64,000 bases of DNA, from assembly GCA_049719955.1 (NCBI GenBank), contig JBNARC010000004.1:16782-80781 (forward strand), read 5' to 3'. Below the pieces are notes generated by a model that worked only from the letters and a program-made list of their open reading frames with translations, ran no database searches and was not told the DNA's origin. Within the stretch, counting starts at the first letter, position 1, and every line of letters starts with the position of its first letter. The position numbers and the translations under genes were made by a program. The DNA comes from Moorellales bacterium (GTDB taxonomy: Bacteria > Bacillota > DSM-521 > Neomoorellales > SLTJ01). This document shows, one piece after another, positions 5,224 through 43,618 of this stretch.

Positions 5224-5242
5224 TATTGTACTCATCGGCTTC

Positions 5243-8782: not shown

Positions 8783-8801
8783 GCAAGCGGGGGGAGGGAA
8801 G

Positions 8802-9845: not shown

Positions 9846-9870
9846 GGGCGAGGTAAGGGAGGGGAGAAGA

Positions 9871-11094: not shown

Positions 11095-11150
11095 TTGGGG
11101 TCGAAGATTTTTTTGATCCCCCGCGAAAAGAGGAAGGAGTTGGCTAGGTG

Positions 11151-11179
11151 TTGTAGAATAGCAAGGGTACAAATATTAA
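11151..11179 (+). promoter_or_regulatory. candidate sigma-A promoter for the pilA leader
   Basis: TTGTAG (11151-11156), a 17-nt spacer, then TATTAA (11174-11179). It lies in an AT-rich patch just upstream of the riboswitch. Confidence 0.45.
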
Positions 11180-11204
11180 TCTAAGTAAATCTTCGGGTAT
11201 TGGA

Positions 11205-11302
11205 GAGGATACCGAAAGGGCAAACCCGGCGAAAGTCGGGGGCGCAAAGCCGCGGGCCTAAGGACCGAGGGCGGGTCTAAGGTGGCCGGGCTGCCGAAGT
11301 CG
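11205..11302 (+). promoter_or_regulatory. c-di-GMP-I (GEMM-I) riboswitch aptamer
   Basis: 'AAAGGGCAAACCCGGCGAAAGUCGGGGGCGCAAAGCCGCGGGCCUAAGGACC...GGUCUAAGGUGGCCGGGCUGCCGAAG' aligns almost position for position with the Vibrio Vc2 aptamer. Shared elements are GGGCAAACC, a GAAA tetraloop, GGGACGCAAAGCC, CCGGCCUAA and GGUAGCGGGGUUACCGA. Confidence 0.85.
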
Positions 11303-11331
11303 ACCAAGAGCGGCAGCTCGGTTTAGTTTTT
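11288..11331 (+). terminator. intrinsic terminator forming the riboswitch expression platform
   Basis: The stem pairs GCTGCCG (11290-11296) with CGGCAGC (11311-11317), around a 14-nt loop, and is followed by GGTTTAGTTTTT. The 5' arm is also the 3' strand of the aptamer. Confidence 0.65.
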
Positions 11332-11550
11332 GCGGGCGGACAGAAGCGGGGGTGAGGAAGGAGGAAAGGGAAGGACGGTTGAAGCCCAGAATACGTAGCG
11401 GCGTGCTTCGGTCTTCGGCTACTTAAGTAACGGTGGTGCGAGAAAAGCTGTGGACTGGGCGGCAAATGCGGCCCGACATCGGAAAACATCAAGAGGTACT
11501 TAGAGGTTCGACCCAACGGAAAGTTTGATTTGGTAAGGAGGCGAGTGGGA

Positions 11551-11970
11551 ATGCGTTGGATGCGGAGGCAACTTAACCGCGCCCGTCGTGACCGGGGTTT
11601 CACGCTCATTGAGTTGATGGTGGTTATAATCATTATCGGCATCTTGGCTGCTATTGTCCTGCCGAACTACTTGGACTTGGGAGAGAAGGCCAAGAAGGGT
11701 CGGGCCAAAGGGGAGCTGAAGGCCCTGGGTGCGGCAGTCGGGCTTTATCGTGCGGATAAGGGTGTGTGGCCGGAGGATACCGACCTGGAAGGCAACCTCG
11801 AGGACTATGGTTTTAGCGAGCGGCCTGACGATCCATGGGGAAAGGAATACAAGTGGGATAAGAACAATAAGTACATCTACAGCCTAGGTCCTAACGGGGA
11901 ATGGAATAGCTACGGTGGGGATGACATTTATTACGATGCTAATAAGCAGAAATTCGGACCCAATATCTAG
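11551..11970 (+). CDS. pilA: major type IV pilin (GspG/PulG-like pseudopilin fold)
   Basis: ATG 11551 follows TAAGGAGG. The prepilin leader 'MRWMRRQLNRARRDRG|FTLIELMVVIIIIGILAAIVLPNY' is present, and the C-terminal 'DPWGKEYKW...GPNGEW...GGDDIYY' is T2SS-G-like. Confidence 0.9.
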   Translation: MRWMRRQLNRARRDRGFTLIELMVVIIIIGILAAIVLPNYLDLGEKAKKGRAKGELKALGAAVGLYRADKGVWPEDTDLEGNLEDYGFSERPDDPWGKEYKWDKNNKYIYSLGPNGEWNSYGGDDIYYDANKQKFGPNI

Positions 11971-12028
11971 CCTAGGCGGGGTTGGTGTCAGGCCGACGAG
12001 AGCCTAAGCGGTTCGGGGAGATTGGACG

Positions 12029-12781
12029 GTGGAACAGGGGCTGGTTGTTATACTCGGCCTGGCAGTAGGAAGTTTCCTCAATGTGTGCATCTATCGTCTT
12101 CCCAGGGGGGAATCATTGGCGTTCCCCCCTTCTCGTTGTCCGACCTGTGGACACCGGTTGGCGCCGCAGGATTTGGTGCCGGTGCTGAGCTACCTATGGC
12201 TCAGGGGGCGCTGCCGCTACTGCGGGGAGAGGATCTCCCCTCTGTATCCCCTGGTGGAGCTGGGTGCCGGCGGCCTTTTTGGGCTACTCTACAGCATGTA
12301 TGGGCTTTCACCCGAGCTGATAAGCCGGCTAGTGCTGGCCTCGGGACTCCTGGTGGCGGCAGTGATTGACCTGCGCCATTACCGGATTCCCAACCAGTTG
12401 GTGGTGTTTCTGACTGTCGCCGCGCCCCTCCTTAACCTGTGGACCCGCGAACTCCCCTGGTGGCAGGTGCTGGCCGGCGCGGCGGTGGGGGCGGGGATTC
12501 TGGGGGCGTTGGCCGTCTTGAGCCGGGGCGGCATGGGCGAGGGAGATGTGAAGTTGGCCGCGGCTACTGGCCTCTACCTGGGTCCGGCGGGCCAGGTCCT
12601 GGCCATATTTCTGGCCGCGGCCGCGGGGGCCATGGTGGGGGGAGTGCTGATCGCGAGCGGCCGCAAGAAGCGCCGGGATCCTATTCCTTTTGCGCCCTTT
12701 TTGGGCATCGGTAGCTTCATTACTTACGTGTGGGGAGCGGACTTGTGGCGGCTTTATCTTTCCTGGGCGGGCCTAATGTAG
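12029..12781 (+). CDS. pilD: prepilin peptidase / N-methyltransferase (A24 family)
   Basis: Contains 'GSFLNVCIYRLP', the zinc motif 'CPTCGHRL...CRYCGERI', and the catalytic regions 'AAVIDLRHYRIPN' and 'GMGEGDVKLAAATG'. Confidence 0.9.
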   Translation: MEQGLVVILGLAVGSFLNVCIYRLPRGESLAFPPSRCPTCGHRLAPQDLVPVLSYLWLRGRCRYCGERISPLYPLVELGAGGLFGLLYSMYGLSPELISRLVLASGLLVAAVIDLRHYRIPNQLVVFLTVAAPLLNLWTRELPWWQVLAGAAVGAGILGALAVLSRGGMGEGDVKLAAATGLYLGPAGQVLAIFLAAAAGAMVGGVLIASGRKKRRDPIPFAPFLGIGSFITYVWGADLWRLYLSWAGLM

Positions 12782-12848
12782 CCGGATGCGCCTTTTAATC
12801 AAGGGAGCCGGGCAATGGGGCCATCGATGCGGGAGCGGTGTGGTATAG

Positions 12849-14993
12849 GTGCGATACCAAGGTGAAACCGGACGCGAGGTGTTGCTTTTGCCCGGGCGGG
12901 TGGTCACTATGGAGGGGCAGCAGGCCGGCGAGAGTTCGGCGCGAGCCTCTCCCGTGGCCTTTGCTCGCGCCCTATGGTCCAGGTCGGTTTGGCGGGAGCA
13001 AAATTACGCCTTCCTGGTCCTGCTAGCTGCGGTGGGTCTACTGCCCCTTTTCCACAATGGGTACCAGCATCCCGCCACCAGGTGGGTGGGGTTCGCAGTG
13101 GCGGCCGCTACCTTCTGGGCGGCCGGAGGCGAACCGAAGTACAAATCCTTGTCTACCAGACCGGCAACCGACGTCCGGGTCTTTGCGGCCGTTCTTGCCT
13201 ACGTGCTCTGGGCGGGCGGGAGCGTTTTTTGGTCAGTGAACCGGACGAATTCGCTAGGGGAATGGTTTTACCTGGGCACCTACGGGTCGGCCTTCTACCT
13301 TGCCTACGGTTACCTTTCCCGCCAGGAAGCCGCCAAGCTGGTTCGGTTTCTCGTAATCTTTGGCTCCCTACTTTCCGTTGCCGGCATCGCGGAGTACTTG
13401 CTTCTGAACCCTGGCCGGATAGTCGCAACCTTCATAAACCCCAACCCTCTCGGTGGGTACCTGGCCATGCTTTGCCTACTGGCCCTGCCCCGGTGGCTTA
13501 CGGCGGCGGAAAACGGTCGCGGTCGGTGTTTTCTTTTCGGCGGTCTGGGCGCCTTTGCCGTCCGTCCGGCGCTCTCCCTTGCTTTGTTGCTCATGCTAAC
13601 CGGTTTGGCCCTCACCGGGTCCCGCGGAGCCTGGATGGCTTTTGCCTTCGGCTCTGCAGCGCTGTTTATCTTGCGCCCCCGGGCCCGGAGCTTGCGAGTG
13701 GGGTGCGCCTTCGGCCTGCTGCTGGCCGTGGTAGCGCTGGTCGCCGTAGGTCTAGCGCATATCGCGGCCTGGTTACAGCAAACTGAAGGGGCGCGGTGGC
13801 TTGCCGGGAGGCTTCTAGAGGCCAACCTCATCCGGGCGGAGAGTTTCGGCTCTAGCTCCGTCGGTGGTCGTCTTTCCTTTTGGGGGGTGGCACTCCGAGA
13901 GGCGGCGGCGCGACTGCTAACCGGCTTCGGCCTGGGCAATTATCATGAGGTCTACTTCCTCTATTGGCCGGGAGACGAGTTTTACTCCAAGTACGCCCAT
14001 AACCACTATCTCCAGACCGCTGCCGACCTAGGCCTTCCCGGGGCCATCCTCCTAGCCCTGGCCTTGTCCCTCTTGGCCACGGCTCTATGGGGCCGGGTTC
14101 GGCGTTTGCGGGCGCACCCCCTTCCCCTAGGCCTGTTTGCCTCCTGCCTTGCCTTCCTGTTTCATAGCGGGGTGGACTTCACCTGGGATATGCCCGCCGT
14201 AACCCTCACCTTTTGGGTGCTGGCCGGAACCGCCTTGGGGCTGAGTCGCAACCATAGGGTCCCAACAGGCATGAACCGATACCGAGTGGCCTTCCGGGCG
14301 GTGGCGCTGGCCACGGCACTTCTGGCCGTCCACGCCTGGGTGGTAGACCACTATTTGAATCTAGGAGTGGAGGCGGCCCGGGAAGGCGAAAGCTCTCGAG
14401 CGTTGGCGTCGTGGCAAAAGGTCGAGGTGCTGGCGCCGTGGTCGCCTGCTCCCTGGTACTATAGGAGTCGGCTTTGGACCGGGGAGCCGAACCGGGGGGA
14501 GAGGGCGGCGGCCGAGGCGGTTAGACGTTCTCCCTACGATAAGGATCTTCGCCTAATACTGGCCCGCTTTCAGGAGCAGCTCGGCCATATGGAAGCAGCC
14601 GAAGAGAATCTGCGCCTGGCCCTGAGTCTGGGCGGTTACTACCCTGGTCCCCATCTTACCTTGGGACAATTCTATTTGCGTCAGGCTCGGTGGTCGGAGG
14701 CGGAAGAGGTAATGGCCCGGGGCCTGGCATTGAAGGACTTCGCCCTGGCCCGGGCTCCTAACGCCAAGGAGACAGCGCGCCTGGAGGAGCAGATCCTGGG
14801 GCTGCGACTGGGTCTGAGCCGGGCCTACGCAGAACAGGGGCGCTTCGAGGCGGCGGTGCAGCAGCTTACCGAAGTGCTGCGGGCTCACCCCAACCATGAG
14901 GCGGCGCGGCAACTACTGGAGCGTTACCGCGCCCAAGCGGCGATGGCCACCGAGCAGGAAAGGCTTCCTCAGATGTCGAATGGGGGCTACTGA
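12849..14993 (+). CDS. polytopic O-antigen ligase-like (Wzy_C) membrane protein with a C-terminal TPR domain; candidate pilin O-oligosaccharyltransferase
   Basis: The 714-aa protein has at least 10 hydrophobic helices. The Wzy_C signature 'YAHNHYLQTAADLGLPGAILL' is present. C-terminal TPR-like repeats include 'LTLGQFYLRQARWSEAEEVMARGLAL' and 'YAEQGRFEAAVQQLTEVLRAHPNHEAA'. The start is uncertain (GTG 12849 or ATG 12909). Confidence 0.75.
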   Translation: MRYQGETGREVLLLPGRVVTMEGQQAGESSARASPVAFARALWSRSVWREQNYAFLVLLAAVGLLPLFHNGYQHPATRWVGFAVAAATFWAAGGEPKYKSLSTRPATDVRVFAAVLAYVLWAGGSVFWSVNRTNSLGEWFYLGTYGSAFYLAYGYLSRQEAAKLVRFLVIFGSLLSVAGIAEYLLLNPGRIVATFINPNPLGGYLAMLCLLALPRWLTAAENGRGRCFLFGGLGAFAVRPALSLALLLMLTGLALTGSRGAWMAFAFGSAALFILRPRARSLRVGCAFGLLLAVVALVAVGLAHIAAWLQQTEGARWLAGRLLEANLIRAESFGSSSVGGRLSFWGVALREAAARLLTGFGLGNYHEVYFLYWPGDEFYSKYAHNHYLQTAADLGLPGAILLALALSLLATALWGRVRRLRAHPLPLGLFASCLAFLFHSGVDFTWDMPAVTLTFWVLAGTALGLSRNHRVPTGMNRYRVAFRAVALATALLAVHAWVVDHYLNLGVEAAREGESSRALASWQKVEVLAPWSPAPWYYRSRLWTGEPNRGERAAAEAVRRSPYDKDLRLILARFQEQLGHMEAAEENLRLALSLGGYYPGPHLTLGQFYLRQARWSEAEEVMARGLALKDFALARAPNAKETARLEEQILGLRLGLSRAYAEQGRFEAAVQQLTEVLRAHPNHEAARQLLERYRAQAAMATEQERLPQMSNGGY

Positions 14994-15002
14994 GGGAGGA
15001 AT

Positions 15003-15506
15003 ATGCTGAAGATCAAGCGCCCTTGGCCTAGTGTGTCTGGATGTCCTGGTTTTACCCTTTTGGAGGTCCTAATGGTGGCGGTAATTTTGGGGATTCTGGC
15101 TGCCACCGTGGCCCCCCAGGGTGCGGCGCTAGTACAGTCCTACCGGCTAAAGGAGGCGGCGGAAATGGTGGCCGCCGATCTCCGGCTGGTACAGCAGCGG
15201 GCGGTGGCCGGTGAGGGCCGGAACTGGCGCCTAATCTTCAACCTGGGAGGCAACCGGAGCCGATACCTGGTACAGCAGGGTACCGGGGGAGTGAACCTGA
15301 TCCGGGACTTGCCTAAAGGCATAGTTTTCGACGGAGACATCAAGGTTGGGGCAGCGTACAATGAGGTGTGGTTTGACTTAGAGGGTACGCCTAACTCCGG
15401 GGTGGTGGACATCGTCATCCCCCTGAAGGACGAGCAGAGCGGCCGTTATCTTTTTGTCCAGGTTGGCGGGACTACCGGTCGAGTATCGGTTACCGAGCGC
15501 CTGTAG
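15003..15506 (+). CDS. minor pilin (GspH/FimT-like), prepilin-type N-terminal cleavage/methylation domain
   Basis: The leader 'PG|FTLLEVLMVAVILGILAATVAP' is present, in pilus-operon context. Confidence 0.8.
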   Translation: MLKIKRPWPSVSGCPGFTLLEVLMVAVILGILAATVAPQGAALVQSYRLKEAAEMVAADLRLVQQRAVAGEGRNWRLIFNLGGNRSRYLVQQGTGGVNLIRDLPKGIVFDGDIKVGAAYNEVWFDLEGTPNSGVVDIVIPLKDEQSGRYLFVQVGGTTGRVSVTERL

Positions 15507-15543
15507 GGTGGCGCTCGGTTAGGAGTCCAGGAGCGGATGGCTA

Positions 15544-15993
15544 ATGGGGCGAACCGGGCCAAGGAAGAGGGTACGCGAGGATGGTTTTACTCTTATAGAA
15601 GTACTTGCGGCCCTGGCCATTCTGGCCGTAGCCCTGATACCACTTATGGATGTATTCGGGCAGAGCCTAAGACTGGGAGAGCAGGCAGGCGAGGAAAGTG
15701 TTGTAACCTATCTGGCGCAGGAAAAGATGGAGCAGTATCTCTTCTGGTTCCGCCAGCACCGAGGCCAGGGTCTGGAACTTCGGGCCAAGCTCGAGGCGGA
15801 TCACGTTGACCTCGATCCTGACGACGGCGAGGATCCCGAGTTTCGGCCTTTAGACGATTTCCCCGGCTACGCCTATCGGGCCTGGTTGGCTCCGGAATAC
15901 GGTAACGGCGAAGCCAGGCAGTTGCGGCGGCTTAAGGTGGAAGTTAGGGGGCCAGAGGGCCGGCCGGTCGTGCTAACCACTTTGGTTTGGTGA
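15544..15993 (+). CDS. minor pilin (PilV/GspI-like)
   Basis: The leader 'REDG|FTLIEVLAALAILAVALIPL' is present. Length is 149 aa. Confidence 0.8.
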   Translation: MGRTGPRKRVREDGFTLIEVLAALAILAVALIPLMDVFGQSLRLGEQAGEESVVTYLAQEKMEQYLFWFRQHRGQGLELRAKLEADHVDLDPDDGEDPEFRPLDDFPGYAYRAWLAPEYGNGEARQLRRLKVEVRGPEGRPVVLTTLVW

Positions 15994-16006
15994 GGACTAA
16001 GGGACC

Positions 16007-16588
16007 ATGGTGAATCATCAGTCCCTGAGAAGGTCGCCTGGAGGACAGAGGCGGTTGCGCCTTGGCGACGGCGGGTTTACGCTTCTGGAGGCCCTCTTGG
16101 CTGCCATGTTGATGGTAACCGTCGTGGCCTCGGCCTACGTCCTGCTTGAGCAAGGGGCGCTCTCGTGGCAGGTGCAGGCCGACCGGCGGGAGGCCCGGGA
16201 GAACTTGCGCGTGGCCCTGGCCAGAATAGGTAAGTACGCCCGGGAAGCCACGGGAGTAAAGGTAGAGGCCAACGGAGCCGCGCTCACCCTTTCCTGGTAC
16301 GATCTGAGTAACGCTCAGTGGAAGCAAATCCGCTACCAGGTAATGCGGGGCGCCCTTTGGGAAGGGCGCCGCAACAAGTCCGGTCCGGAATGGGTATCTA
16401 CGCCCAACCCTTCGACCGACTACGTCTGGAAGGTGTTGGCCGAGCGCATAGTGGAAGCCCGGTTTACGACCGAGGGAAACGGAGACGCCAGGCTGGTGAG
16501 CGTGGGGCTGGTCGCGAGGGACCGTCGCGGAGTTGAGCAGGCGGTGAGTACCAAGTTAATGGCGCGGGTGGTCTCGGTGAATCCGTAG
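16007..16588 (+). CDS. minor pilin (PilW/GspJ-like)
   Basis: The leader 'GDGG|FTLLEALLAAMLMVTVV' is present. Length is 193 aa. Confidence 0.8.
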   Translation: MVNHQSLRRSPGGQRRLRLGDGGFTLLEALLAAMLMVTVVASAYVLLEQGALSWQVQADRREARENLRVALARIGKYAREATGVKVEANGAALTLSWYDLSNAQWKQIRYQVMRGALWEGRRNKSGPEWVSTPNPSTDYVWKVLAERIVEARFTTEGNGDARLVSVGLVARDRRGVEQAVSTKLMARVVSVNP

Positions 16589-16638
16589 CCCTTCGGGACA
16601 AGCCTGGAAAGCATCTGCCGGACAAGGGGCGGGCTTCG

Positions 16639-17862
16639 GTGTGGGGTGATGAACGCCTGAGCAGCGCAGCGAGTCGGCCCTGCTGGATTGAGGATCAGGG
16701 CGTGACCCTGATGACCGTCCTCGTGGTTCTAACCGTATTATTGGGGTTGGGCCTGGCGGCCTTGGCTCTTACCCTGATCCATAAAGATATCAGTCGCACG
16801 GAGGTGCGAAGCCTGCAGGCCTTCTACGCCGCCGAAGCGGGCATCCAGGCGGCCCTGGCCCAATTAGCGGCCAGCCTTGAATGGCCGGGGTATGACCCTT
16901 CTAGAGGGATAGGCAGCTTACCGGCGATTGCCGATCAACTGGAGGGTGCCCGGATCAAGGAGATTCTGTTGACGCCTCAGGGAGAAGTGTTGCAGGTTGA
17001 GGCCCGGGGCGAGGCTGGTGACCTCACCCGCCGGGTGGCGGCTTTGCTTCGGAAGCCTGCCTGGGCTTTCGGTTTGATTCTTTACCAGGCCACGGCACCG
17101 GTGAGCATCGGAGGTAACTCTTACCTGCGAGGCACTTTTATCTTTGCCGGCGACGTTACCATCGGGTCGTCCGTGCAGGTGGGGGATTCCCAGGCCAGAG
17201 ACGGGTGGATTATCTCCGGTGGCAATGTAGTCAACAAGGGAGTGGTTTACGGCGGGGTGAAAGCTCGGGGAGTGGTTGACAATTCTCAGGGAACGATCGT
17301 GGGGGTTCTGGAACAGCGGGCGGAAGTCTTCATTCCTCCGGTTACGGCTCCAGATCTACAGTATTACTACATCCGCGCCGACGAAAGGTTGGCCGAACCG
17401 GATGGCGAGGTTGAGTTGACGGGTGAGGCCCTGCAGGCTTTCATCAATGCCGGAAAACGTATTGTTTACGTGGACGGAGATCTGGTTTTGGACGAAAAGG
17501 GTAACCGCAACATCGTTTACGAGGGACAAATCGCCCTCGTGGCCAGCGGTAGTATAGAAATAAGAGCAGATGTGGTCAGGGGGCCCGGAACCCAAGAGAC
17601 TAGCGTCTTGGCCTTAATCGCTGGTGGAAACATTATAGTGCACAACCAGGAAGTGGAAGCTCTGCTATGGGCGGGCGGTGAGCTTTGTACCTACGGTAAT
17701 CCCTCCATACGCGGAGCGGCGGTAGCGGCCACCTTAGAGGCAAGCGGTGGGTGTAACCTCACCTATGACCTTATCCTTACCAGTCAGTTTTGGAATAGCT
17801 TTCTCTTGCCGCCGGACGAGTTCGGCCTTAAGATGGTACGCTGGTGGGCGAAGGGGTCGTAG
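16639..17862 (+). CDS. large PilX-like minor pilin / putative tip protein with a Gly/Val-rich beta-solenoid-like C-terminal region
   Basis: The N-terminus 'GVTLMTVLVVLTVLLGLGLAALALTLIH...AFYAAEAGIQAAL' resembles a PilX_N-type anchor and lacks Glu5. The C-terminal 250 aa contain repetitive G-x-V/I strands. Confidence 0.7.
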   Translation: MWGDERLSSAASRPCWIEDQGVTLMTVLVVLTVLLGLGLAALALTLIHKDISRTEVRSLQAFYAAEAGIQAALAQLAASLEWPGYDPSRGIGSLPAIADQLEGARIKEILLTPQGEVLQVEARGEAGDLTRRVAALLRKPAWAFGLILYQATAPVSIGGNSYLRGTFIFAGDVTIGSSVQVGDSQARDGWIISGGNVVNKGVVYGGVKARGVVDNSQGTIVGVLEQRAEVFIPPVTAPDLQYYYIRADERLAEPDGEVELTGEALQAFINAGKRIVYVDGDLVLDEKGNRNIVYEGQIALVASGSIEIRADVVRGPGTQETSVLALIAGGNIIVHNQEVEALLWAGGELCTYGNPSIRGAAVAATLEASGGCNLTYDLILTSQFWNSFLLPPDEFGLKMVRWWAKGS

Positions 17863-17873
17863 GGGGGGGCCAT

Positions 17874-18881
17874 TTGATTCCCTTTGTTCACTTTCGAAAG
17901 AAACGATATATTGGCTTTGACCTGGGAGCCAGGGGGGTGCGGGCGGTAGAGGTGCAGGGCCGTGCCGGAAGTTGGCAGGTGAGTTCCGCCGTGGTTCACC
18001 CCTTACCGCCGGGGGCGGTCCGAGATGGGATGGTATTGGTGCCGGATAAGGTGGTCGCTGCCCTAGATAAACTTGCGGCCGAGCAAGGGTGGAAAGGTCG
18101 CAGGGTATTTGCCTCCGTCGGTGGTAGCCGTCTCATTACCCGGCATTTACGTCTCCCCCTCATGCCCCGGGAGGAACTGGATAAGGCCGTACGTTACGAG
18201 GCCGAGCAGTACCTGCCTGTGGGGACAGCGGAACTCAGCACGGATTTCGCCGTGCTGGGGAAGGAGCAAGATGGGGAAGGGGAGAAATTGGAGGTACTGC
18301 TGGCCGCTGTTCCCCTGGATACGGCGCGCACCTACGCCGAGTTGTTCGAGGCCGCCGGGCTATCCTTGATGGCGCTGGACATCGTGCCCCTGGCCTGGCA
18401 GCGGGTGTTGGTCGCCGCGCTGGGCGATTCCCTGGCCGATCAGGCGGTAGGGGTGCTGGATCTGGGATATTCCTGTACCCACATTGTGATACTCTATGGC
18501 TCCCGGGTGGAACTGTGCCGCTCGTTACCGCAGGGGTGGGGTGTGGCAGAGGCGAGTTCAGCGGCTTACGAGGCCGCGGCGGCCATGGCTCCGCCTGTGC
18601 CTCCGGCGCCGTCTGCGGGGACGGCCCTGGAGGAGGTCTTAGGAAGCATCTTGAACGAGATGCGTCGGTCGGTGGACTTTTTTCGTGTCCAGAGGCGGTC
18701 GGCAGTTTGGGGGAGTCTCTACCTTGGCGGTGCGTTAGGCGGGTCTTCTGAGGTATGCGCTTTGCTTGAGGCGGAGATCGGGGTGCCAGTTAAGCCCTTT
18801 TGGCCCTTAGCGGAGGGTCTGGTAGCCGATCCAGAGTTGGTGGTAGCGCTTGGAACCGCCCTGCGGCAGGTGATACCCTAG
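17874..18881 (+). CDS. pilM: type IV pilus assembly protein PilM (actin-like ATPase fold)
   Basis: Contains 'KKRYIGFDLGARGVRAVEV' and 'YEAEQYLP'. TTG 17874 follows a G-rich Shine-Dalgarno sequence. The track ORF starts at GTG 17844, overlapping the previous gene; either start is possible. Confidence 0.85.
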   Translation: MIPFVHFRKKRYIGFDLGARGVRAVEVQGRAGSWQVSSAVVHPLPPGAVRDGMVLVPDKVVAALDKLAAEQGWKGRRVFASVGGSRLITRHLRLPLMPREELDKAVRYEAEQYLPVGTAELSTDFAVLGKEQDGEGEKLEVLLAAVPLDTARTYAELFEAAGLSLMALDIVPLAWQRVLVAALGDSLADQAVGVLDLGYSCTHIVILYGSRVELCRSLPQGWGVAEASSAAYEAAAAMAPPVPPAPSAGTALEEVLGSILNEMRRSVDFFRVQRRSAVWGSLYLGGALGGSSEVCALLEAEIGVPVKPFWPLAEGLVADPELVVALGTALRQVIP

Positions 18882-19423
18882 TGCCAGCGGTCAATCTTCT
18901 ACCTCTTGAGCTCCGACCTCCTTCCCAAGGTGTCTCCGGGCGCCGGTTGGCACTTGTGGCCGCGTGTCTGGCCGCAGCCGCGGTTACGGGCCTGGCAGCC
19001 GCCAGTTATTGGCGTCTGACCCGGGAGTTACAGGCGGTTACCGCGGCCAGGGTGGAGCTGGCAGAGGTGGCGGCGGAAGCCGAGGAGTTGGAACGGGAGT
19101 TGAGTCAGATCGAGCAGGAGCGGACGGCACTACAGGAGGTATGGCAGAAGCGTTTTTCGTGGTCGCGCTTCCTCTCGGATTTGTGGGCCAGCTTGCCCTC
19201 AGGGGTATGGCTGACCGATCTTTCGGTAAAGGGTTCGGAGCTAACCCTGCAGGGAGGTGCCGCCTCAGCCGGTAACGTAGCTCAATTCCTCCAACGGCTG
19301 GTGCTAGTCGCCGGGGTCCGGGCACCCCAGTTGGTTAAGTTGGAAGGTAACCCGGGGCTGAGATTTACCGTAAAGGCGACGCTGGAAAGGCCCTTGCTTC
19401 CGGAGCGAGGAGAAGGGGATTGA
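18881..19423 (+). CDS. pilN: type IV pilus assembly protein PilN
   Basis: GTG 18881 overlaps the pilM stop (TAGTG). The protein begins 'VNLLPLELRP', followed by a single TM helix and a coiled coil. Confidence 0.8.
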   Translation: MPAVNLLPLELRPPSQGVSGRRLALVAACLAAAAVTGLAAASYWRLTRELQAVTAARVELAEVAAEAEELERELSQIEQERTALQEVWQKRFSWSRFLSDLWASLPSGVWLTDLSVKGSELTLQGGAASAGNVAQFLQRLVLVAGVRAPQLVKLEGNPGLRFTVKATLERPLLPERGEGD

Positions 19424-21102: not shown

Positions 21103-22416
21103 ATGCCTAACTGGCCTGGGTTGGTGGCGGCAGGGGCGGCGGCCGGGGTGGCGGTGGCTCTGTACCGGCAGAACCGGAGACTGCGGCGGGCCCGCTCGGC
21201 TTTGGAGCAAAAGGTCCGGGAACTGGCGGAGCGTAACCGGCTTCTGGAGGGGCTAGCGATAACCGACGGGCTTACCGGACTTTACAACCGCCGCTACTTC
21301 GAGCAGCGCCTGGCGGAGGAGATAAGCCGCTGCCAGCGGTACGAATCGGTGCTGGCGCTGGCCATGATCGACGTGGACTACTTCAAGTGCTACAACGACG
21401 CCTTGGGACACGTAGAGGGCGACCGGGTGCTGCAGGATCTGGGCGGCCTGCTCCGGGAGAGCGTGCGGGAAGGAGACGTGGTGGCCCGCTACGGCGGGGA
21501 TGAGTTTGCCGTCATCTTCGTAGAAATGGATTCTTTGGTGGCGCAGAAGGCCGGCGAGCGCATCCGGGAGAACATCGAGGCCTACGCCGCCAGGCTGGTA
21601 GGCTCCGGCTCGGGCGCGGCGGAAGAGCTGTTGACCGTTTCCGTGGGCATTGCCAGCTTTCCCAAGGACGCCGAGACCGCCGAAGAACTCATCAGCAAGG
21701 CCGACCAGGCCCTGTACCGGGCCAAGGAGGGCGGGAAGAACCGGGTGGTGGTCTACCAGTCTCCCCTGGAGGAGCTGGCCCAGGGGACGGAGATACCGGA
21801 GCAAGAAGAGGAAGAGGGCGACCTTGCCCTCCACCTCATGCGGGCCATACGCTCCATCCTCCTTTCCATCAACGCCCGCGACCGCTACACCTACGGCCAT
21901 TCCCAGCGCACCACCCGTTACGCCGAGGCCCTTTCGCGCCGCCTGGGGCTGGCTCCGGAGCGCGTGCGGCTGGTCAAGCGCGCCGCCCTGCTGCACGACG
22001 TGGGCAAGGTCAACATCGATAAAGAGATCCTTATTAAGTCTAAGCCCCTTTCTGCGGAAGAGAGGGAGATCATCAGGCGCCATGCCCTCATGAGCGCGCA
22101 GATAATCGAGCCGGTTAAGGAGCTGGCCCGGGTAATTCCCATTGTGGAGCAGCACCACGAGCGCTACGACGGCAAGGGCTACCCCCGAGGTCTGGCCGGT
22201 GAAGAGATTAGCCTTGAGGCCCGCATCCTGGCCATTGCCGACGCTTATGATGCCATGCGCTCCCCGCGGCCCTATCGCGACGCCCTAAGCTTTGCCGAGG
22301 CGGTAGCGGAACTGCGCCAGGGGGCGGGCACGCAGTTCGACCCTCACCTGGTAGAAGCGTTCATAGAAGTGATTCGGGAGCTGGAGATGGGGGCTGCCGG
22401 TCGGCCTCGCGCCTGA
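21103..22416 (+). CDS. membrane-anchored diguanylate cyclase (GGDEF) fused to an HD-GYP phosphodiesterase domain
   Basis: Contains 'DGLTGLYNRRYF' and 'RYGGDEFAVIF', with an RxxD I-site ('REGD') five residues upstream of GGDEF. The HD-GYP part has 'LLHDVGK' and 'HHERYDGKGYPRGL'. Confidence 0.9.
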   Translation: MPNWPGLVAAGAAAGVAVALYRQNRRLRRARSALEQKVRELAERNRLLEGLAITDGLTGLYNRRYFEQRLAEEISRCQRYESVLALAMIDVDYFKCYNDALGHVEGDRVLQDLGGLLRESVREGDVVARYGGDEFAVIFVEMDSLVAQKAGERIRENIEAYAARLVGSGSGAAEELLTVSVGIASFPKDAETAEELISKADQALYRAKEGGKNRVVVYQSPLEELAQGTEIPEQEEEEGDLALHLMRAIRSILLSINARDRYTYGHSQRTTRYAEALSRRLGLAPERVRLVKRAALLHDVGKVNIDKEILIKSKPLSAEEREIIRRHALMSAQIIEPVKELARVIPIVEQHHERYDGKGYPRGLAGEEISLEARILAIADAYDAMRSPRPYRDALSFAEAVAELRQGAGTQFDPHLVEAFIEVIRELEMGAAGRPRA

Positions 22417-37708: not shown

Positions 37709-38599
37709 TTGGATCTGGCAGCCTACCTGGAAGAGAAACGCCGGTTGGTAGATGCCGCCCTGGATCGATATCTACCCCCGGAAACCGCTTATCCTCCGCG
37801 CATACATCAGGCCATGCGCTACAGCTTATTCGCCGGTGGCAAGCGCTTACGGCCGATCTTGGTGCTCATGGCCTCGGAAGTGTGCGGGGGCAGCGAGGAC
37901 CGGGTCTTGCCGGCGGCCTGCGCCGTGGAGCTGGTGCACACCTATTCCCTGATCCACGACGACCTGCCCGCCATGGACGACGACGACTTGCGCCGGGGAC
38001 GGCCTACGTGTCATCGCGCCTTCGACGAAGCCACTGCCATCCTGGCCGGAGACGCGCTCTTGAGCTACGCCTTTTGGTTGTTGGCGCACGAGCTCCCACG
38101 CGGCGGAGTATCGGAGGCGGTTACCGTGGCGGTGATTGAAGAGCTGGCTGAGGCCGCCGGCGTAAGGGGCTTAATCGCCGGGCAGGTGGCGGACCTGGCA
38201 GCCGAGGGTCGGCGGGTAGATGAGGAGGAGTTGACCTATATTCACCGTCACAAGACGGCCTCGCTATTTGTAGCCTGTCTCCGTATAGGCGGTCGGCTGG
38301 GCGGGGCGGGAGAGAGGGAACTGGAGGCGCTTGAGGAGTTCGGGCTGGAACTGGGGTTGGCATTTCAGATAGTGGATGATATACTAGATGTGACCGGGGA
38401 AGTCTCCAAGCTGGGTAAGGAGCCGGGATCGGATCAAAGGCGGGAAAAGGCCACATTTCCGGCTCTTCTCGGCCTGGAAGGAGCCCGGCGTAGGGGGCGG
38501 GAAGCTACCGAAAGGGCGCTGGTCGCCGCCGAGCGGCTGGGGCCCGGAGCCTGGCGGTTGCGGGAACTGGCCCTATACCTCCTAGGCCGGGACCGTTGA
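37709..38599 (+). CDS. ispA: (2E,6E)-farnesyl diphosphate synthase
   Basis: Contains 'GGKRLRP' and both Asp-rich motifs, 'IHDDLPAMDDDDLRRG' and 'FQIVDDILD'. Confidence 0.92.
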   Translation: MDLAAYLEEKRRLVDAALDRYLPPETAYPPRIHQAMRYSLFAGGKRLRPILVLMASEVCGGSEDRVLPAACAVELVHTYSLIHDDLPAMDDDDLRRGRPTCHRAFDEATAILAGDALLSYAFWLLAHELPRGGVSEAVTVAVIEELAEAAGVRGLIAGQVADLAAEGRRVDEEELTYIHRHKTASLFVACLRIGGRLGGAGERELEALEEFGLELGLAFQIVDDILDVTGEVSKLGKEPGSDQRREKATFPALLGLEGARRRGREATERALVAAERLGPGAWRLRELALYLLGRDR

Positions 38600-38719
38600 G
38601 TACCGACTACCGTGGACCTAGTACCGCAAGCAGTACCAGAGGCGATCGGCATTCCTGAGGACGGGCCGGGCTTCGCCTAGAGGCGGGTCTGATCGGTCCG
38701 GGAGCGCTTCGCCTTTTTG

Positions 38720-39370
38720 CTTCTTTATCGGCGCGAGCCTCCGATCGGTAGGTGGTGCAGTATTCTAGTCAGGAAGGCTTCTTCTGAAGGCGGGCCTAAA
38801 AATCCGCCAAGGGCACAGCGATGAAGCTTCTGGTGCTGGCCGCTGACGCCCAGTCGGGGGCTGGTGCTGGGAGACTAGGGGGCCGGGCAGCCCGCAATGG
38901 CATGCGGGTGGCGTCCCGACCTCCGCGGAGACCTGAGTGCGTGGTCTGGCGGCTACGGCTCAGGAGAGAAACCTGCATGTCGGTACGTCGGGTGCTGGCT
39001 GCAGTGTAGCCTGCCCTGAGTGGTACGGGCGGATGTTGGCGATGACCCGTCGAGCCTGTGGGCCGCAGGCTCGGTTCGGTAGCGGCTGAAACTCGTGCTG
39101 CAAAAGGGGCTAGGAAGAGGCCGGACTGTCGAGGAAAGCTCCTAGACTGCCTACCGCTAGGGTAGGGCCCAGCCGGGATTAAAGTGTGCTCTAAGTGGTA
39201 ATCTAGCCCTGCCTTGGGCGACCGGGCAGTGCGGTCCTTAAAGGGAAACCGCCGGGTCGGCGACGGCCGGTGGACCGTAGGGAAAGCCTGCTAGACCTTA
39301 AGGCGCAACGTTTACCGGCTGGGCTACCACCTGCCGTAGGTTAATTCATTCGTCAGAGGAATCGGGGTGG
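38720..39370 (+). ncRNA. ole: probable OLE (ornate, large, extremophilic) RNA; boundaries approximate
   Basis: The 778-nt gap has no credible ORF and lies exactly in the ispA - X - small membrane protein - dxs context known for OLE RNA. Numerous GC-rich local helices are visible. The consensus could not be aligned by eye. Confidence 0.65.
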
Positions 39371-39377
39371 AAACCGG

Positions 39378-39938
39378 ATGGCTAAGTCCGGGGTTTCCGG
39401 TCGAAGGGCATTGCTTGCAGGTAGCGGTGCCTTTTTTTTGGCCGCCTTGGTAGGGGCCGGTTCTCAAACGGTGGTCGGCAACCTCGCCTCGTTGCCGCTG
39501 GCTTTCGGCCTGCTGCTGATGGTGGTTCTTGCAGGCATAATTTTTGATATAATTGGCGTAGCGGCCACGGCGGCGCGGGAAACCGGACTTCACGCTAAAG
39601 CCGCGCGTCGGGTGGCCGGTGCCAAACAGGCGTTGAACCTGGTGCGCAACGCCCACCACGTGGCCAGCTTTTGCAACGACATGGTGGGCGACATCTGCGC
39701 CACCCTCAGCGGCGCCATGGGAGCGGTGATAGTCTTTCGGCTGGCCGAGCCGGAAAACCGGTTGTGGGCAGGCATACTGATGACCGCCGCTATTTCCGGC
39801 GCTACCATCGGGGGTAAGGCCTGGTGCAAGGGGTTGGCCATCGGTCGGGCGGATGAGATCACCTTCCAGGTGGGCCGCCTCCTCTACGGACTGCAGCAGG
39901 GACTGATGACTTTGGGCAGACGGAAAGGGAAGCGATAA
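39378..39938 (+). CDS. oapA: OLE-associated protein A-like small four-helix membrane protein
   Basis: The 186-aa protein has four hydrophobic segments. Its stop overlaps the dxs ATG (TAATG). It lies immediately downstream of the large non-coding region. Confidence 0.65.
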
Positions 39939-41830
39939 TGTGGTTAGAGAGAATAGAAGGCCCCCAAGATCTGAAGCACCTCACTGCCGGGCAGTTGGAA
40001 CAGTTGGCGCAGGAAATTCGGGAGGAACTGGTACGAACCGTGGCCTGCAATGGCGGGCACCTGGCAGCCAACCTGGGAGTGGTGGAACTGACCATTGCCC
40101 TTCACCGGGTATTTGATTCTCCACGAGACAAGATAATCTGGGACGTTGGGCACCAGTGCTACGTTCACAAACTGCTAACCGGAAGACGGCGCGAGTTTGC
40201 CAGTTTGCGTCGGTACGGGGGGCTCAGTGGCTTTCCTAAACGAGAAGAAAGCCCCCATGACTCTTTCAATACCGGCCACAGCAGTACCTCCATTTCCGCC
40301 GCGCTGGGTCTGGCGCTGGCAAGGGACCTCAGGGGAGACCACTTCGAGGTGGTGGCGGTTATCGGCGACGGAGCCATGACCGCCGGCATGGCCTTCGAGG
40401 CCATGAACCACGCCGGCCACCTTCGGACCCACCTTATTGTGGTTCTCAACGATAACGAACGCTCCATAGAGAATAGCGTAGGGGCCATGGCCGCCTACCT
40501 GGCGCGGTTGCGGGCCAGCACCACTTATGCCCGTAGCAAGGAGCGATTCAAGGAGATGCTGCGGTCGTGGTCGCCTGCCGGATCCAAGGTTCTTAAGGTG
40601 GCGGAGAGGCTGAAGGGCAGCCTAAAGTACTTAGTGGTGCCGGGCATGGTATTTGAAGAGCTGGGCTTTACCTATTTGGGGCCGGTGGACGGGCACGACC
40701 TGGAGGCGCTGCAGGAGGTGCTATCCTGGGCGAGAAGGATAGAAGGGCCGGTGCTGGTCCACGTTCTGACCCAGAAGGGGAAGGGTTACCCGCCGGCAGA
40801 GAATAGCCCGGAGGTTTTTCACGGCATCGGGCCTTTTGATCCGGCGAGCGGCCGACCCAAGGATCAGTCTCCGGTCCCCTCTTACTCGGCGGTTTTCGGT
40901 CAGACGCTGGTGCGCCTGGCCGAGGAAGACTCCCGGATAGTGGCCATTACCGCCGCCATGACGGGCGGAACCGGACTGGAGGAGTTTGCCCGTCGGTTCC
41001 CCCAGCGTTTCTTCGACGTGGGAATTGCCGAGCAGCACGCGGTAACTCTGGCGGCGGGTCTGGCGTGTGCGGGACTGAGGCCGGTAGTAGCGGTCTACTC
41101 TACCTTTCTTCAGCGCGCCTACGATCAGGTGGTACACGACGTTTGCCTCCAGCGCCTTCCGGTGGTGCTGGCGGTGGATCGTGCCGGCCTGGTAGGGGAG
41201 GATGGCGAGACCCATCAGGGGGTTTTCGACCTGGCCTACCTGCGACATATTCCCCAAATAGCGGTAATGGCTCCCAAAGATGAGGCCGAACTGCAACACC
41301 TCTTGCTTACGGCGCTAGAGTTGGGGGGGCCGGCGGCGCTGCGTTATCCTCGGGGACGCGGCCGAGGGGTGGGCCTGGCCACCAGGCCCTGGCCCTTACC
41401 GGTGGGACGGGGAGAGTTGTTGCGGGAGGGTCGACACCTGGTAATCGCCGCCATAGGCCCCTTGGTTTACGAGGCGCTGAAGGCGGCAGAACTGTTGAGT
41501 GCCAGGGGAATAGAGGTGGCAGTGATTAACGCCCGGTTCGTCAAGCCCCTGGACCGGGAGTTGATTGTGGAGCAGGTACGCCGTACCGGCTACCTGCTCA
41601 CGGTGGAGGAGCACGTATTGGCCGGCGGTTTCGGTAGTGCGGTACTGGAGTTGCTCGCCGCCGAGGGCATAAGGCCGAATGGGGTTCGCTGCCTGGGTAT
41701 TTCGGATTGTTTTGTGAGTCACGGCCGCCCGGACGAGCTACGCGCCGAGCTGGGCCTAGACGCTCGGGGAATCGCGGCCGCAGCCGAGGCTATGCTTCGG
41801 CCGGGATACGCGTGCGCCGGGTGGGGATAA
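39938..41830 (+). CDS. dxs: 1-deoxy-D-xylulose-5-phosphate synthase
   Basis: Contains '[18 protein letters not shown]', '[15 protein letters not shown]', '[13 protein letters not shown]' and '[11 protein letters not shown]'. Confidence 0.95.
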
Positions 41831-42733: not shown

Positions 42734-43618
42734 ATGCAGACCTTGGGCTTGGTTCTCAATCCTACCAAGGATACGGTACCGCAAATCGCCCGGGAAATGG
42801 CGGAATGGCTGCGGCGCCGCGGGGTGAAGGTGGCGCTTTCTCCCGCTCACGCCCGTCTGGCCGGGATGGAGCAGTGGGGGGTGGAGGAAGAGGAATTGGT
42901 TCGGCAGGTTGACTGTCTGGTAGCCCTGGGCGGAGACGGGACTCTGCTGGCTGCGGCCCAATTGGCCGTAACCGGAGATAAGCCGTTATTGGGGGTTAAC
43001 TTGGGCCACCTGGGTTTTCTTACCGAGGTAGAACTGCCGGATCTGTTCCCGGGACTGGAAAGGTTGCTGGCCGGGGACTACCGCCTGGAGGAGCGAATGT
43101 TGTTGAAGGGCGAGGTATGGCGAGAAGGCGAGCGAGGCGGAAGCTTTTGCGCCCTCAACGATCTGGTAGTTAGCAGGGGAGCTTTCTCCCGTCTCTTGGA
43201 GCTGCGCACCTATGTGGAGGAAGACTTCGTGGCCACCTATCCTGCTGACGGGCTCATCGTTAGCACTCCCACTGGTTCTACCGCCTATTCTCTGGCCGCA
43301 GGGGGACCCATAATTGTGCCCTCATTGGAGGTAATACTGCTCACCCCCATCTGCCCCCACACTTTTTACGCCCGACCTTTGGTTATCGAGGCCGACAGGC
43401 AGGTGCGGATTCGAGTGGAAACCGAGAGGGCCGAGGCCATGCTGACGGTGGACGGCCAGCGGGGTTATCCCTTAAGGTGGGGGGACGAAGTGCGGGTTAC
43501 CAAGGCGCCGAGGCGGTTGCGGCTGGTCAAACTGGGAACGCGCTCCTTTTTCCAGATCATGCGTCAAAAGCTGCACTTGGGTGAGAATAAGGGAAGTGGT
43601 GGCCTTTGGGCAAACTAG
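42734..43618 (+). CDS. nadK: NAD+ kinase
   Basis: Contains 'LGGDGTLL', 'GVNLGHLGFLT' and 'DGLIVSTPTGSTAYSLAAGGPI'. Confidence 0.92.
   Translation: MQTLGLVLNPTKDTVPQIAREMAEWLRRRGVKVALSPAHARLAGMEQWGVEEEELVRQVDCLVALGGDGTLLAAAQLAVTGDKPLLGVNLGHLGFLTEVELPDLFPGLERLLAGDYRLEERMLLKGEVWREGERGGSFCALNDLVVSRGAFSRLLELRTYVEEDFVATYPADGLIVSTPTGSTAYSLAAGGPIIVPSLEVILLTPICPHTFYARPLVIEADRQVRIRVETERAEAMLTVDGQRGYPLRWGDEVRVTKAPRRLRLVKLGTRSFFQIMRQKLHLGENKGSGGLWAN

Follow-up and report, generated by a model that had tools for sequence, protein, structure and literature searches.

A full-length OLE RNA gene and its oapA neighbour between ispA and dxs in a Moorellales-like bacterium

The ispA-dxs interval and its surroundings

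Between the ispA stop codon at position 38599 and the next plausible start codon, an ATG at 39378, lies a gap of 778 nt that is occupied by a match to the OLE RNA family and followed by oapA and dxs (Table 1). All positions refer to the window, the whole 64-kb stretch of DNA that was analysed. Few noncoding RNAs of bacteria that lack a known biochemical job are as large and as well conserved as OLE, and thousands of representatives are known, Moorella thermoacetica included.

The initial annotation, made from the letters of the DNA, had assigned this gap to ole within an xseA-xseB-ispA-OLE-oapA-dxs arrangement and had named the Rfam OLE covariance model and a homology search of the 186-aa protein against OapA as ways to check it. 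Both checks were strongly positive. Model RF01071 matches the plus strand at 38736–39346 (611 nt) with 495.5 bits, compared with a gathering score of 50 bits, and with an E-value of 2.3e-142; chance is therefore excluded. The match spans model positions 1–616 of 616 and is not truncated. The approximate bounds given earlier (38720–39370) enclose the conserved core, which P1 closes at 38750/39332. Family searches confirmed xseA, xseB, ispA and dxs in the proposed arrangement, and the other gaps between 33.6 and 46 kb are indeed small (0–81 nt). The oapA ATG stands on the ole strand, 31 nt after the end of the OLE match at 39346, and the overlap between oapA and dxs was read correctly: the stop codon TAA (39936–39938) and the dxs ATG (39938–39940) form TAATG.

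The gene order of the block is folD-xseA-xseB-ispA-ole-oapA-dxs-tlyA-(nadK)-argR-recN, and its surroundings comprise the spoIIIA operon, Asp23/yqhY, nusB, folD, xseAB, ispA, dxs, tlyA, nadK, argR, recN, spoIVB and spo0A. This gene set from spoIIIA to spo0A is the published OLE neighbourhood (PMC12265935). The sporulation genes in the window are spoIIIA, spoIVB, spo0A, sigF and spoVA, and OapA shares 99% identity with a protein from a 'MAG: Moorellales bacterium'. The order Moorellales belongs to the Clostridia within the Bacillota, the phylum expected of an OLE host. Such hosts are typically anaerobic or extremophilic, and from the lifestyle of Moorella we take this one to be anaerobic or thermophilic. 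Almost certainly, 38736–39346 (+) is ole and 39378–39938 (+) is oapA of a Moorellales-like, spore-forming bacterium in the Bacillota; the source is probably an uncultured Moorellales bacterium. The detection of ole at this locus is a routine database match, found directly by the public Rfam model. Elsewhere in the window, a 431-aa minus-strand ORF (4051–5346) was discarded as spurious; the plus strand there holds ORFs at 3985–5223 and 5243–5764, whose translations read as putative aroC and aroK.

Table 1. Features of the ispA-dxs interval. Base pairs are standard pairs where counted; all features lie on the plus strand.
Feature	Position	Strand	Description or basis
ispA, farnesyl diphosphate synthase (upstream)	37709..38599	+	Pfam polyprenyl_synt, 207 bits; FPPsyn model of NCBIfam, 358.5 bits with a cut-off of 275
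Leader, ispA stop to OLE	38600..38735	+	136 nt; 47% identical to L010
ole, OLE RNA, full-length type	38736..39346	+	Extent of Rfam RF01071 match
Conserved OLE core	about 38745-39341	+	Within RF01071 match
P1	38750..38756/39326-39332	+	AGGUGGU (5') with ACCACCU (3'), closes the whole RNA; 7 standard pairs
P2	38757..38768/39142-39150	+	GCAG, UAU bulge, UCUAG; partner CUAGACUGC; 9 standard pairs, 3-nt bulge
P3.1	5' part of 38770..38785/39126-39128	+	CAG with CUG, 3 bp
P3	within 38770..38785/39113-39122	+	GGCUUCUUCU with GGAAGAGGCC, 10 bp
P4 hairpin	38789..38808	+	Stem 6/6 pairs; A-rich loop CCUAAAAAU at 38795-38802
J4a/5	within 38809..38931	+	GGGCACAGCGAUGAAG; part of k-turn/OapC/bS21 region
P5/P5.1	38827-38873	+	Loop GCCCA; 19/20 standard pairs
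P6/P6.1	38878-38924	+	Loop AUGGCA in CAAUGGCAUG; all 14 pairs standard
J6/7	within 38809..38931	+	GCGGAGA
P7	38932-38964	+	Shorter than consensus; 11 consensus positions deleted in and next to loop
P8	38973-39004	+	Covariance-model pairs
P9 arm	39013..39110	+	Four stacked helices, covariance-model pairs; terminal loop palindrome GGCC 39061-39064
3' domain with predicted OapB-binding site	39131..39325	+	Model pairs; helices 16-23 covary
P10 hairpin	39131-39141	+	
P11	39151-39165	+	
P12 series	39166-39176/39315-39325, 39185-39189/39303-39307, 39202-39207/39290-39295	+	
P13	39209-39229	+	GCGA tetraloop 39218-39221; bulged U 39214 or 39215
P14	39230-39237/39272-39279	+	
P14.1	39251-39271	+	GCGA loop 39260-39263
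Shine-Dalgarno-like GGGGUGG	39364..39370	+	7 nt before oapA start codon
oapA, OLE-associated membrane protein	39378..39938	+	186 aa; CNNM-like transmembrane fold, DxxxD D101-D105; homology
dxs, 1-deoxy-D-xylulose-5-phosphate synthase (downstream)	39938..41830	+	TIGR00204 850.6 bits

The leader is probably a spacer or transcript-processing region outside the conserved RNA. A reading of it as a further structured element was considered and dropped because its fold (38597–38750) is no better than that of shuffled sequences (z = −1.1) and because it is poorly conserved. Three clustered AGTACC copies (38599–38637) and a hairpin running into a U-tract were observed in it; no promoter- or terminator-like sites were called inside it. 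In the scan around the locus, counts of such sites were no higher than in shuffled sequences and no significant site flanked the RNA. A single promoter-like site (38357–38385) falls inside ispA, and the terminator-like calls within OLE are on the opposite strand only. It appears unlikely that the leader exerts a lineage-specific control of OLE amount or excision, or, as a separate suggestion, that the G+C-rich RNA-protein pair is an unusually stable specimen; OLE's nature would be unchanged if either were true.

The open reading frames in the gap are all short, as had been noted, with 62 aa (+, 38821–39009), 50 aa (+) and 60 aa (−, 38796–38978). The 62-aa and 60-aa frames, rich in Arg, Gly and Ala, could be taken for real small-protein genes in which the RNA structure is incidental. 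However, at 63% G+C chance is expected to yield frames as long as these, the substitutions preserve base pairs and not codons, and the nine OLE genes share no conserved reading frame, on which ground we rejected the small ORFs as genes. From one of these nine genes to the next, the longest ORF inside changes its strand, its position and its length (30 to 130 aa); the frames in the gap therefore do not represent a conserved coding sequence. We regard the small-protein explanation as vanishingly improbable.

Structure and conservation of the OLE RNA

The RNA can form standard pairs at 149 of the 153 base pairs of the RF01071 model. Two GC-rich helices pointed out in the initial annotation, CGGTCC 39232–39237 with GGACCG 39272–39277 and CTGCC 39209–39213 with GGCAG 39225–39229, lie exactly there, and both belong to the OLE covariance model. 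OLE RNAs, about 600 nt long, are characterised by some 25 paired elements with covariation behind them. In an alignment of nine OLE sequences, with 23 helices counted, 88.6% of the cells were paired, compared with 39–46% when the partners were slid. Changes on both sides were found in 91 pairs across the nine sequences, and none of 500 shuffles reached values as high as those observed.

The long-range helices P1, P2 and P3/P3.1 are missing from the Rfam OLE structure and were assessed separately; they form here and covary across the nine OLE sequences. In P1, 5 of the 7 pairs have changes on both sides and 96.8% of the cells are paired. Compensatory changes in P2 occur at C23/G461 and U29/A458 (alignment A1), and its 5' strand here contains the palindromic CUAG; palindromic OapA contact sites have been described near P2 and P4a (PMC12265935). 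P3.1 and P3 are separated by a 3 × 3 purine internal loop (GAA/GGA), and their predicted duplex of 13 pairs has an energy of −19.9 kcal/mol. When strands of the same RNA were combined, P3/P3.1 duplexes averaged −18.2 kcal/mol, compared with −8.4 kcal/mol for strands combined across species, a difference that holds in 9/9 OLE RNAs. P3 plus P3.1 typically comprise about 12 bp and have been proposed to cross the membrane (PMC12265935).

The loops that form the contacts of the OLE dimer are present as well. The letters CUAAAAAU of the P4 loop are invariant in 9/9 sequences; in the cryo-EM structures, the A-rich L4 provides dimer bridge B1, an A-A contact (PMC12286853, PMC12265935). Also invariant across the nine sequences are CGCCCAG (L5.1), CAA.GGCAUG and CAAUGGCAUG (L6.1). 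The stretch 38809–38931 corresponds to the k-turn/OapC/bS21 region and contains the L5-L6 dimer bridge (PMC9723947, PMC12286853, PMC12265935). The P9 terminal loop is a symmetric kissing loop (bridge B3) with palindrome-to-palindrome covariation (PMC12286853); its GGCC is common to Halalkalibacterium (Bacillus) halodurans, L004, L005, L007 and L008, and in L009 this place is taken by UGCA.

P7 and P8 separate full-length OLE from variant 2 in the published variant definitions (PMC11332333). The full-length type is told apart from variants 1 and 2 by P7, P8, a long P9 and, at the end of P13, an OapB site (PMC11332333, PMC7936274); all of these were found. [quoted passage not shown] Judged by their sequence, the GCGA loop and bulged U of P13 and the GCGA loop of P14.1 match them. 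The architecture is thus complete for an OLE RNA, from P1 to P15. With its dimer-contact loops, its k-turn strands and its OapB site in place, the ole gene is of the full-length type.

Comparison with the closest relative, L010, bears on the state of this RNA. Identity is 94% in the OLE core but 47% in the upstream leader, and of the 19 pairs in which substitutions occur, 16 can still pair, three of them changed on both sides. From this contrast and from the pairs retained, the sequences indicate that purifying selection acts on the structure of the OLE RNA in this lineage. One could instead regard the gap as a decaying relic, recognisable as OLE but no longer functional and by now no more than an operon spacer, in line with a P7 shorter than consensus and with the failure to detect a promoter or terminator next to OLE. 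Short P7 stems are found in L005 and L007 too, however, and decay is at odds with the 149 intact model pairs, the L010 substitution pattern, the retention of all conserved loops and protein-binding determinants and an intact oapA with its invariant residues. We consider a relic very improbable, and hold to an OLE RNA under selection.

OapA and the proposed particle

The 186-aa ORF had been proposed to be OapA, a membrane protein with four helices, and both statements stood up. In a BLASTP comparison with H. halodurans P0111, 146 residues aligned at 44% identity (E = 6e-39), and phmmer against a database of 5.8 billion sequences gave E = 7.2e-27 for OapA homology; 172 OapA homologues were found. 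AlphaFold2 predicted helices at residues 8–35, 39–65, 92–122 and 125–156 (mean pLDDT 85.8). A hydropathy scan with a 19-residue window and a threshold of 1.3 flagged the first three, while the fourth stays under the threshold. The residues D101, G104 and D105 of the motif D101-M-V-G-D105 are invariant in a 40-sequence OapA alignment; DxxxD separates OapA from CNNM domains (PMC11332333). Positive charges (K74, R77, R78, K83 and R90) lie within residues 67–90, the loop between helices 2 and 3, and H72, A73, G81 and Q84 are conserved around this cluster. A conserved positive loop between membrane helices 2 and 3 is the presumed RNA-binding face; in H. halodurans, OapA binds OLE RNA at about 2:1, and the RNA needs it to localise to the membrane (PMC12265935). 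Upstream of the gene, the block GGAGGAAUCGGGGUG around the Shine-Dalgarno-like site is identical in L010.

In a Foldseek search of the PDB, the best matches of the predicted OapA fold were the transmembrane domains of MtCorB (7M1T/7M1U) and CorC (7CFF); 7M1U is also the top fold match of H. halodurans OapA (PMC11332333). The CorB matches are modest (E 0.014–0.045, TM-score 0.5–0.58) and Pfam CNNM scored 19.9 bits, under the cut-off of 28.4 bits, so that the analogy to transporters is one of remote similarity; by the Pfam criterion, the score places OapA outside PF01595. The Pfam scan detected no CBS or CorC domains in the protein, which ends at residue 186, and no NCBIfam models matched it. 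Searches of PDB chains with the single sequence and with a 40-sequence profile returned no matches, that is, no detectably similar deposited structure.

These fold matches and the weak CNNM score, together with homologues that some databases name 'CorB' or 'CBS domain containing-hemolysin-like', are what one would cite for a truncated CNNM/CorB/MpfA-type Mg2+ transporter, or an unrelated membrane protein, that has no RNA partner. Such a transporter would not be expected to lack the CBS and CorC domains wholly, to carry the DxxxD missing from CNNM domains or to have four long helices, as predicted here, where CorB has three (PMC11332333). The protein is moreover 44% identical to an OapA whose OLE binding is published (PMC12265935), and OLE lies directly upstream of oapA in 9/9 other loci examined (L001, L003–L009 and L010; eight were scanned with Rfam). 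Seven genome loci that were found via OapA homology each have a full-length OLE just upstream (467–518 bits). We therefore consider a protein without an RNA partner extremely improbable and treat the 186-aa protein as OapA.

What this pair may do can be approached by analogy with published work on H. halodurans and on two Clostridium OLE RNAs. PMC12265935 and PMC11332333 bear out the field summary of the initial annotation, with tethering to the membrane by OapA, stress phenotypes and an unresolved biochemistry. By analogy with the published transcription in H. halodurans, ole would share one long transcript with its neighbours, and the mature RNA would be about 600 nt long. It may form a homodimer, with contacts through the A-A bridge of L4, through L5/L6(/L7) and through the P9 GGCC kissing loop; OapA dimers would hold the RNA at the cell membrane, and OapB, OapC and bS21 would bind to it too. 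Genes for OapB, OapC and bS21 were not found within the 64-kb window, and Pfam revealed no L7Ae/YbxF-type, OapB-type or CNNM-CBS-CorC proteins among about 60 further predicted proteins across it. Such a particle could aid the tolerance of cold, short-chain alcohols, excess Mg2+ and poor carbon sources. Most likely, OapA would act as a CNNM/MpfA-type transport module for divalent cations (Mg2+) that has no cytoplasmic CBS/CorC regulatory domains, and the OLE RNA with its bound proteins would most likely supply the sensing and regulating role of these missing domains. The crossing of the bilayer by P3 is a proposal from the literature (PMC12265935).

For the annotation of this genome, the 778-nt 'gap' becomes ole and the 'hypothetical protein' becomes OapA, with a start upstream of that called in the near-identical MAG protein (186 aa instead of 166 aa). 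Recent cryo-EM work reportedly suggests that OLE may be a membrane-spanning RNA. If the host is thermophilic, as we assume, its G+C-rich OLE might lend itself to structural studies of the whole particle; an unusually stable OLE/OapA pair, if that reading were true, could let the unresolved 3' domain and the membrane-crossing P3 be solved.

Comparison with known systems

On the protein side, the predicted fold of OapA superposes best on the transmembrane domain of the CNNM/CorB/CorC/MpfA family (PF01595; 7M1T, 7M1U, 7CFF). Members of the CNNM family have a CBS pair and usually a CorC_HlyC domain, both absent here, and three membrane helices with a conserved proline and without DxxxD, whereas OapA has four predicted helices and DxxxD and lacks the proline (PMC11332333). 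MpfA is treated in the literature as an all-protein counterpart whose occurrence is anticorrelated with that of OLE (PMC11332333).

Among the OLE loci, the closest is that of L010, an uncultured relative (MAG 'Clostridia bacterium', GCA_024653205.1), with an OapA 76% identical to ours and the same oapA start position; the leaders are unrelated. The OLE of M. thermoacetica (L003) scored 517.7 bits and is 69% identical to the RNA described here (OapA, 51%), so a cultured relative within the Moorellales already has OLE. Within the searchable library we found no literature on OLE RNA with Moorella; the Moorella OLE rests on the Rfam scan of L003. The GGCC palindrome of the P9 terminal loop is not seen in its aligned sequence. 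Both M. thermoacetica and L010 have the locus layout and the order-level lineage found here.

The H. halodurans locus (L001; OLE 538.6 bits, with P0111 as the oapA directly downstream, BH2780-type) shares helices P1–P15, the conserved loops, the OapB site, the DxxxD of OapA and the gene order folD-xseA-xseB-ispA-ole-oapA-dxs-tlyA-argR-recN. The two RNAs are 60% identical over aligned positions, with a G+C content of 63% here and 50% in H. halodurans. The locus described here differs in having a longer leader downstream of ispA (136 nt compared with 58 nt), a shorter P7, a nadK gene inserted between tlyA and argR, and an OapA without the short insertion found between helices 3 and 4 of the H. 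halodurans protein. None of these differences touches a defining OLE feature. The ole-oapA locus belongs to an already known system and represents a standard full-length pair, with no new feature compared with the family.

The OLE RNA between ispA and dxs

The initial annotation placed an OLE-class RNA and its membrane partner between ispA and dxs. The gap it described was confirmed, extending over 778 nt from the end of the ispA ORF (38599) to the next credible start, ATG 39378; adjacent intergenic spacings across 33.6-46 kb measure 0-81 nt. The gap contains short ORFs only, those of the plus strand encoding 62 and 50 aa and that of the minus strand 60 aa. The covariance-model scan proposed as a check, performed for the whole window with Rfam 15, matched OLE (RF01071) at 38736-39346 (+) over the full model (1-616/616) with 495.5 bits and E = 2.3e-142, compared with a gathering score of 50. 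For 153 base pairs of the model both partner nucleotides are present in the window, and 149 of these are standard pairs. Both helices quoted in the initial annotation exist at their coordinates and are helices of the OLE model, namely P13 (39209-39229) and 39230-39237/39272-39279. The gap element is almost certainly OLE RNA, and the 186-aa product encoded directly downstream OapA.

Three long-range helices that belong to the current published model are missing from the Rfam structure; they were sought directly in the window. The duplex P3.1+P3 comprises 13 pairs plus three purine-purine layers, the latter as a 3x3 purine internal loop. About 14 bp were estimated to span the membrane, and P3 and P3.1 typically total 12 bp (PMC12265935); that P3 may cross the bilayer is a model drawing on partial cryo-EM maps.

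Long-range helices and functional landmarks of the OLE RNA
Feature	Sequence and position	Strand	Basis or published role
P1	AGGUGGU 38750-38756 / ACCACCU 39326-39332	+	direct search for published helix
P2	GCAG, UAU bulge, UCUAG 38757-38768 / CUAGACUGC 39142-39150	+	direct search
P3.1+P3	CAG + GGCUUCUUCU 38770-38785 / GGAAGAGGCC + CUG 39113-39128	+	direct search
A-rich L4 loop	CCUAAAAAU 38795-38802	+	A-A dimer bridge (PMC12286853, PMC12265935)
L5.1 and L6.1 loops	GCCCA and CAAUGGCAUG		invariant in 9/9 OLEs
P9 terminal-loop palindrome	GGCC 39061-39064	+	symmetric kissing loop (PMC12286853)
k-turn strands J4a/5 and J6/7	present		OapC, bS21 region (PMC9723947)
OapB determinants	P13 GNRA loop GCGA 39218-39221; bulged U 39214/39215; second GCGA loop 39260-39263		PMC7936274

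Because P7, P8 and a long P9 are present, this OLE is of the full-length type, as distinct from variants 1 and 2 described by Fernando and Breaker (PMC11332333). Its P7 falls a little short of the consensus length, as does P7 in the OLEs of loci L005 and L007. In the alignment, the distal part of P9 was absent from a Syntrophomonadaceae OLE (L006:1992-2572), and the terminal P9 loop of the Moorella thermoacetica OLE (L003:2303-2923) had no obvious 4-nt palindrome; both observations may be relevant to the dimer bridge formed by the kissing loop, or they may be alignment artefacts.

Covariation and selection on the RNA structure

Covariation was analyzed in nine OLEs (the window, H. halodurans, M. 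thermoacetica and six MAGs), whose sequences are 60-69% identical to that of the window. Standard pairs filled 88.6% of the cells of the combined structure versus 39-46% when the 3' partners were shifted by 1-3 columns, and 91 pairs had changed on both sides versus 31-36 with shifted partners; none of 500 shuffles matched any of the five observed covariation measures. Both sides had changed in five of the seven P1 pairs, and P2 contained two compensatory pairs. As MAFFT gaps disrupted the alignment columns of P3, duplex energies were compared instead, yielding a mean of -18.2 kcal/mol for strands from the same species versus -8.4 kcal/mol for cross-species strands.

The possibility of a decaying OLE relic was rejected on comparison with the closest complete relative (L010, MAG 'Clostridia bacterium', GCA_024653205.1), since identity is 94% over the OLE core (38750-39332) and 47% over the leader between ispA and the OLE match (38600-38735, +), and since 16 of the 19 base pairs in which substitutions occur remain paired, three of these 16 having changed on both sides. 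The RNA is intact and its structure is under selection.

The leader, its AGTACC repeats aside, is unconserved and without significant structure. AGTACC occurs three times within 39 nt right after the ispA stop (38599-38637, +), of only 34 copies in the window, both strands counted; L010 possesses a different short direct repeat there, GTAGGCGCAG, in two copies.

The membrane partner OapA

The 186-aa ORF ends with TAA 39936-39938, overlapping the dxs ATG 39938 as noted initially. Homology of its product to OapA, likewise proposed as a check, was found with H. halodurans P0111 (44% identity, E 6e-39), whose gene lies directly 3' of a 538.6-bit OLE match in what is the type ole-oapA locus. The database search yielded 172 homologues, and full-length OLE (467-518 bits) was located directly upstream of oapA in all seven loci recovered via OapA homology, linking RNA and protein. 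The product scored 19.9 bits against Pfam CNNM, below the cut-off of 28.4, and had no NCBIfam match. This agrees with the published finding that OapA proteins rank directly behind MpfA as a group in their match to the CNNM model (PMC11332333). In a 40-sequence alignment D101, G104 and D105 were invariant; D101/D105 constitute the DxxxD motif that separates OapA from CNNM domains (PMC11332333).

An AlphaFold2 model (mean pLDDT 85.8, pTM 0.76) bears out the predicted four-helix membrane protein, with four long helices plus short juxtamembrane helices. Among solved structures it matched best MtCorB, a CNNM protein from an archaeon (7M1T, 7M1U; probability 1.00, E 0.014-0.045, TM-score 0.5-0.58), and CorC from bacteria (7CFF, 7CFG), in each case the transmembrane domain; 7M1U is also the top match for H. 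halodurans OapA (PMC11332333).

The closest homologue is a 166-aa 'hypothetical protein' of 'MAG: Moorellales bacterium' with 99% identity across 89% of the query, and its annotated length places the start at TTG 39438. The 186-aa start is better supported, because the N-terminal 20 residues, including a 13-letter N-terminal stretch, are kept in the nearest relatives and L010 has GTG at the equivalent of ATG 39378.

By analogy with published experiments in other species (PMC12265935, PMC12286853, PMC9723947, PMC7936274), ole would be transcribed as part of a long operon, and its RNA may homodimerise via conserved loops, be anchored at the membrane by OapA dimers and be bound by OapB, OapC and bS21. 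The particle would help cells withstand cold and short-chain alcohols as well as excess Mg2+ and poor carbon sources. The preferred mechanism follows a proposal of the Breaker laboratory, by which OapA may be a CNNM-like transport module for divalent cations that lacks the regulatory CBS and CorC domains, and for which the OLE ribonucleoprotein would supply sensing and regulation. This mechanism is far less certain than the identification, since ion transport by OapA is unreported in the OLE/OapA literature examined.

Gene neighbourhood and comparison with known OLE loci

The window is typical of the chromosomes of sporulating Bacillota. Its genes, nearly all of them plus-strand, comprise aro genes, a type IV pilus cluster, tldD/pmbA, aroQ, pepP, efp, spoIIIAA-AH, two Asp23 (yqhY-type) genes, DUF2273, nusB and folD; xseA, xseB, ispA, ole, oapA, dxs, tlyA, nadK, argR and recN in that order; spoIVB, spo0A, then xerD, deoB, pnp and pdp, followed by D-Ala-D-Ala carboxypeptidase (Peptidase_S11), spoIIAB, sigF and spoVA. 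The genes flanking ole are among the neighbours most often linked to OLE (PMC12265935). Family searches of the predicted proteins found no OapB-, OapC- or MpfA-type gene within the 64-kb window. A 656-aa ORF (604-2574, +) matched in Pfam solely the phage-integrase N-terminal SAM-like domain (about residues 452-537), and no catalytic integrase domain was found in it.

The pilus cluster (7079-19423) comprises pilB, pilT, pilC, a c-di-GMP-I riboswitch (RF01051; 11209-11298, +; 81.1 bits, E 2.2e-14), pilA, pilD, a Wzy_C/TPR protein, minor pilins, pilM and pilN. The riboswitch lies about 230 nt upstream of the type IV pilin gene (11530-11970), which suggests that c-di-GMP controls pilus production. 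A protein encoded 1.7 kb downstream of the cluster (21103-22416, +), in which a GGDEF diguanylate cyclase domain is fused to an HD domain of the HD-GYP type, may supply or consume the c-di-GMP to which the riboswitch responds.

In H. halodurans the order is folD-xseA-xseB-ispA-OLE-oapA-dxs-tlyA-argR-recN. This locus lacks nadK, located in the window between tlyA and argR (42734-43618, +) and also found in L010 and a further relative (L012); OLE neighbourhoods differ between lineages in this insertion. L010 has the same locus as the window, with a 76% identical OapA, and the cultured relative M. thermoacetica also has OLE. A contig labelled 'MAG: Deltaproteobacteria bacterium' (L008, JBLMZJ010000024.1) carries OLE (475.7 bits) plus oapA, with match coordinates and 42% identity to the query the same as in the Syntrophomonadaceae locus L004 and a near-identical OLE sequence. 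Misbinning or mislabelling, as suggested for such cases (PMC11332333), is the probable explanation, and not an occurrence of OLE outside Bacillota.

The window locus is of value for correct annotation and possibly as G+C-rich material for structural studies. The description of OLE dates from 2006, and recent surveys list 2,822 representatives among the species genomes of GTDB and count 8,585 non-redundant sequences (PMC11332333, PMC12286853). The ole-oapA pair of the window behaved as a member of this family in every comparison made, does not depart from it and is an instance of an already known system.
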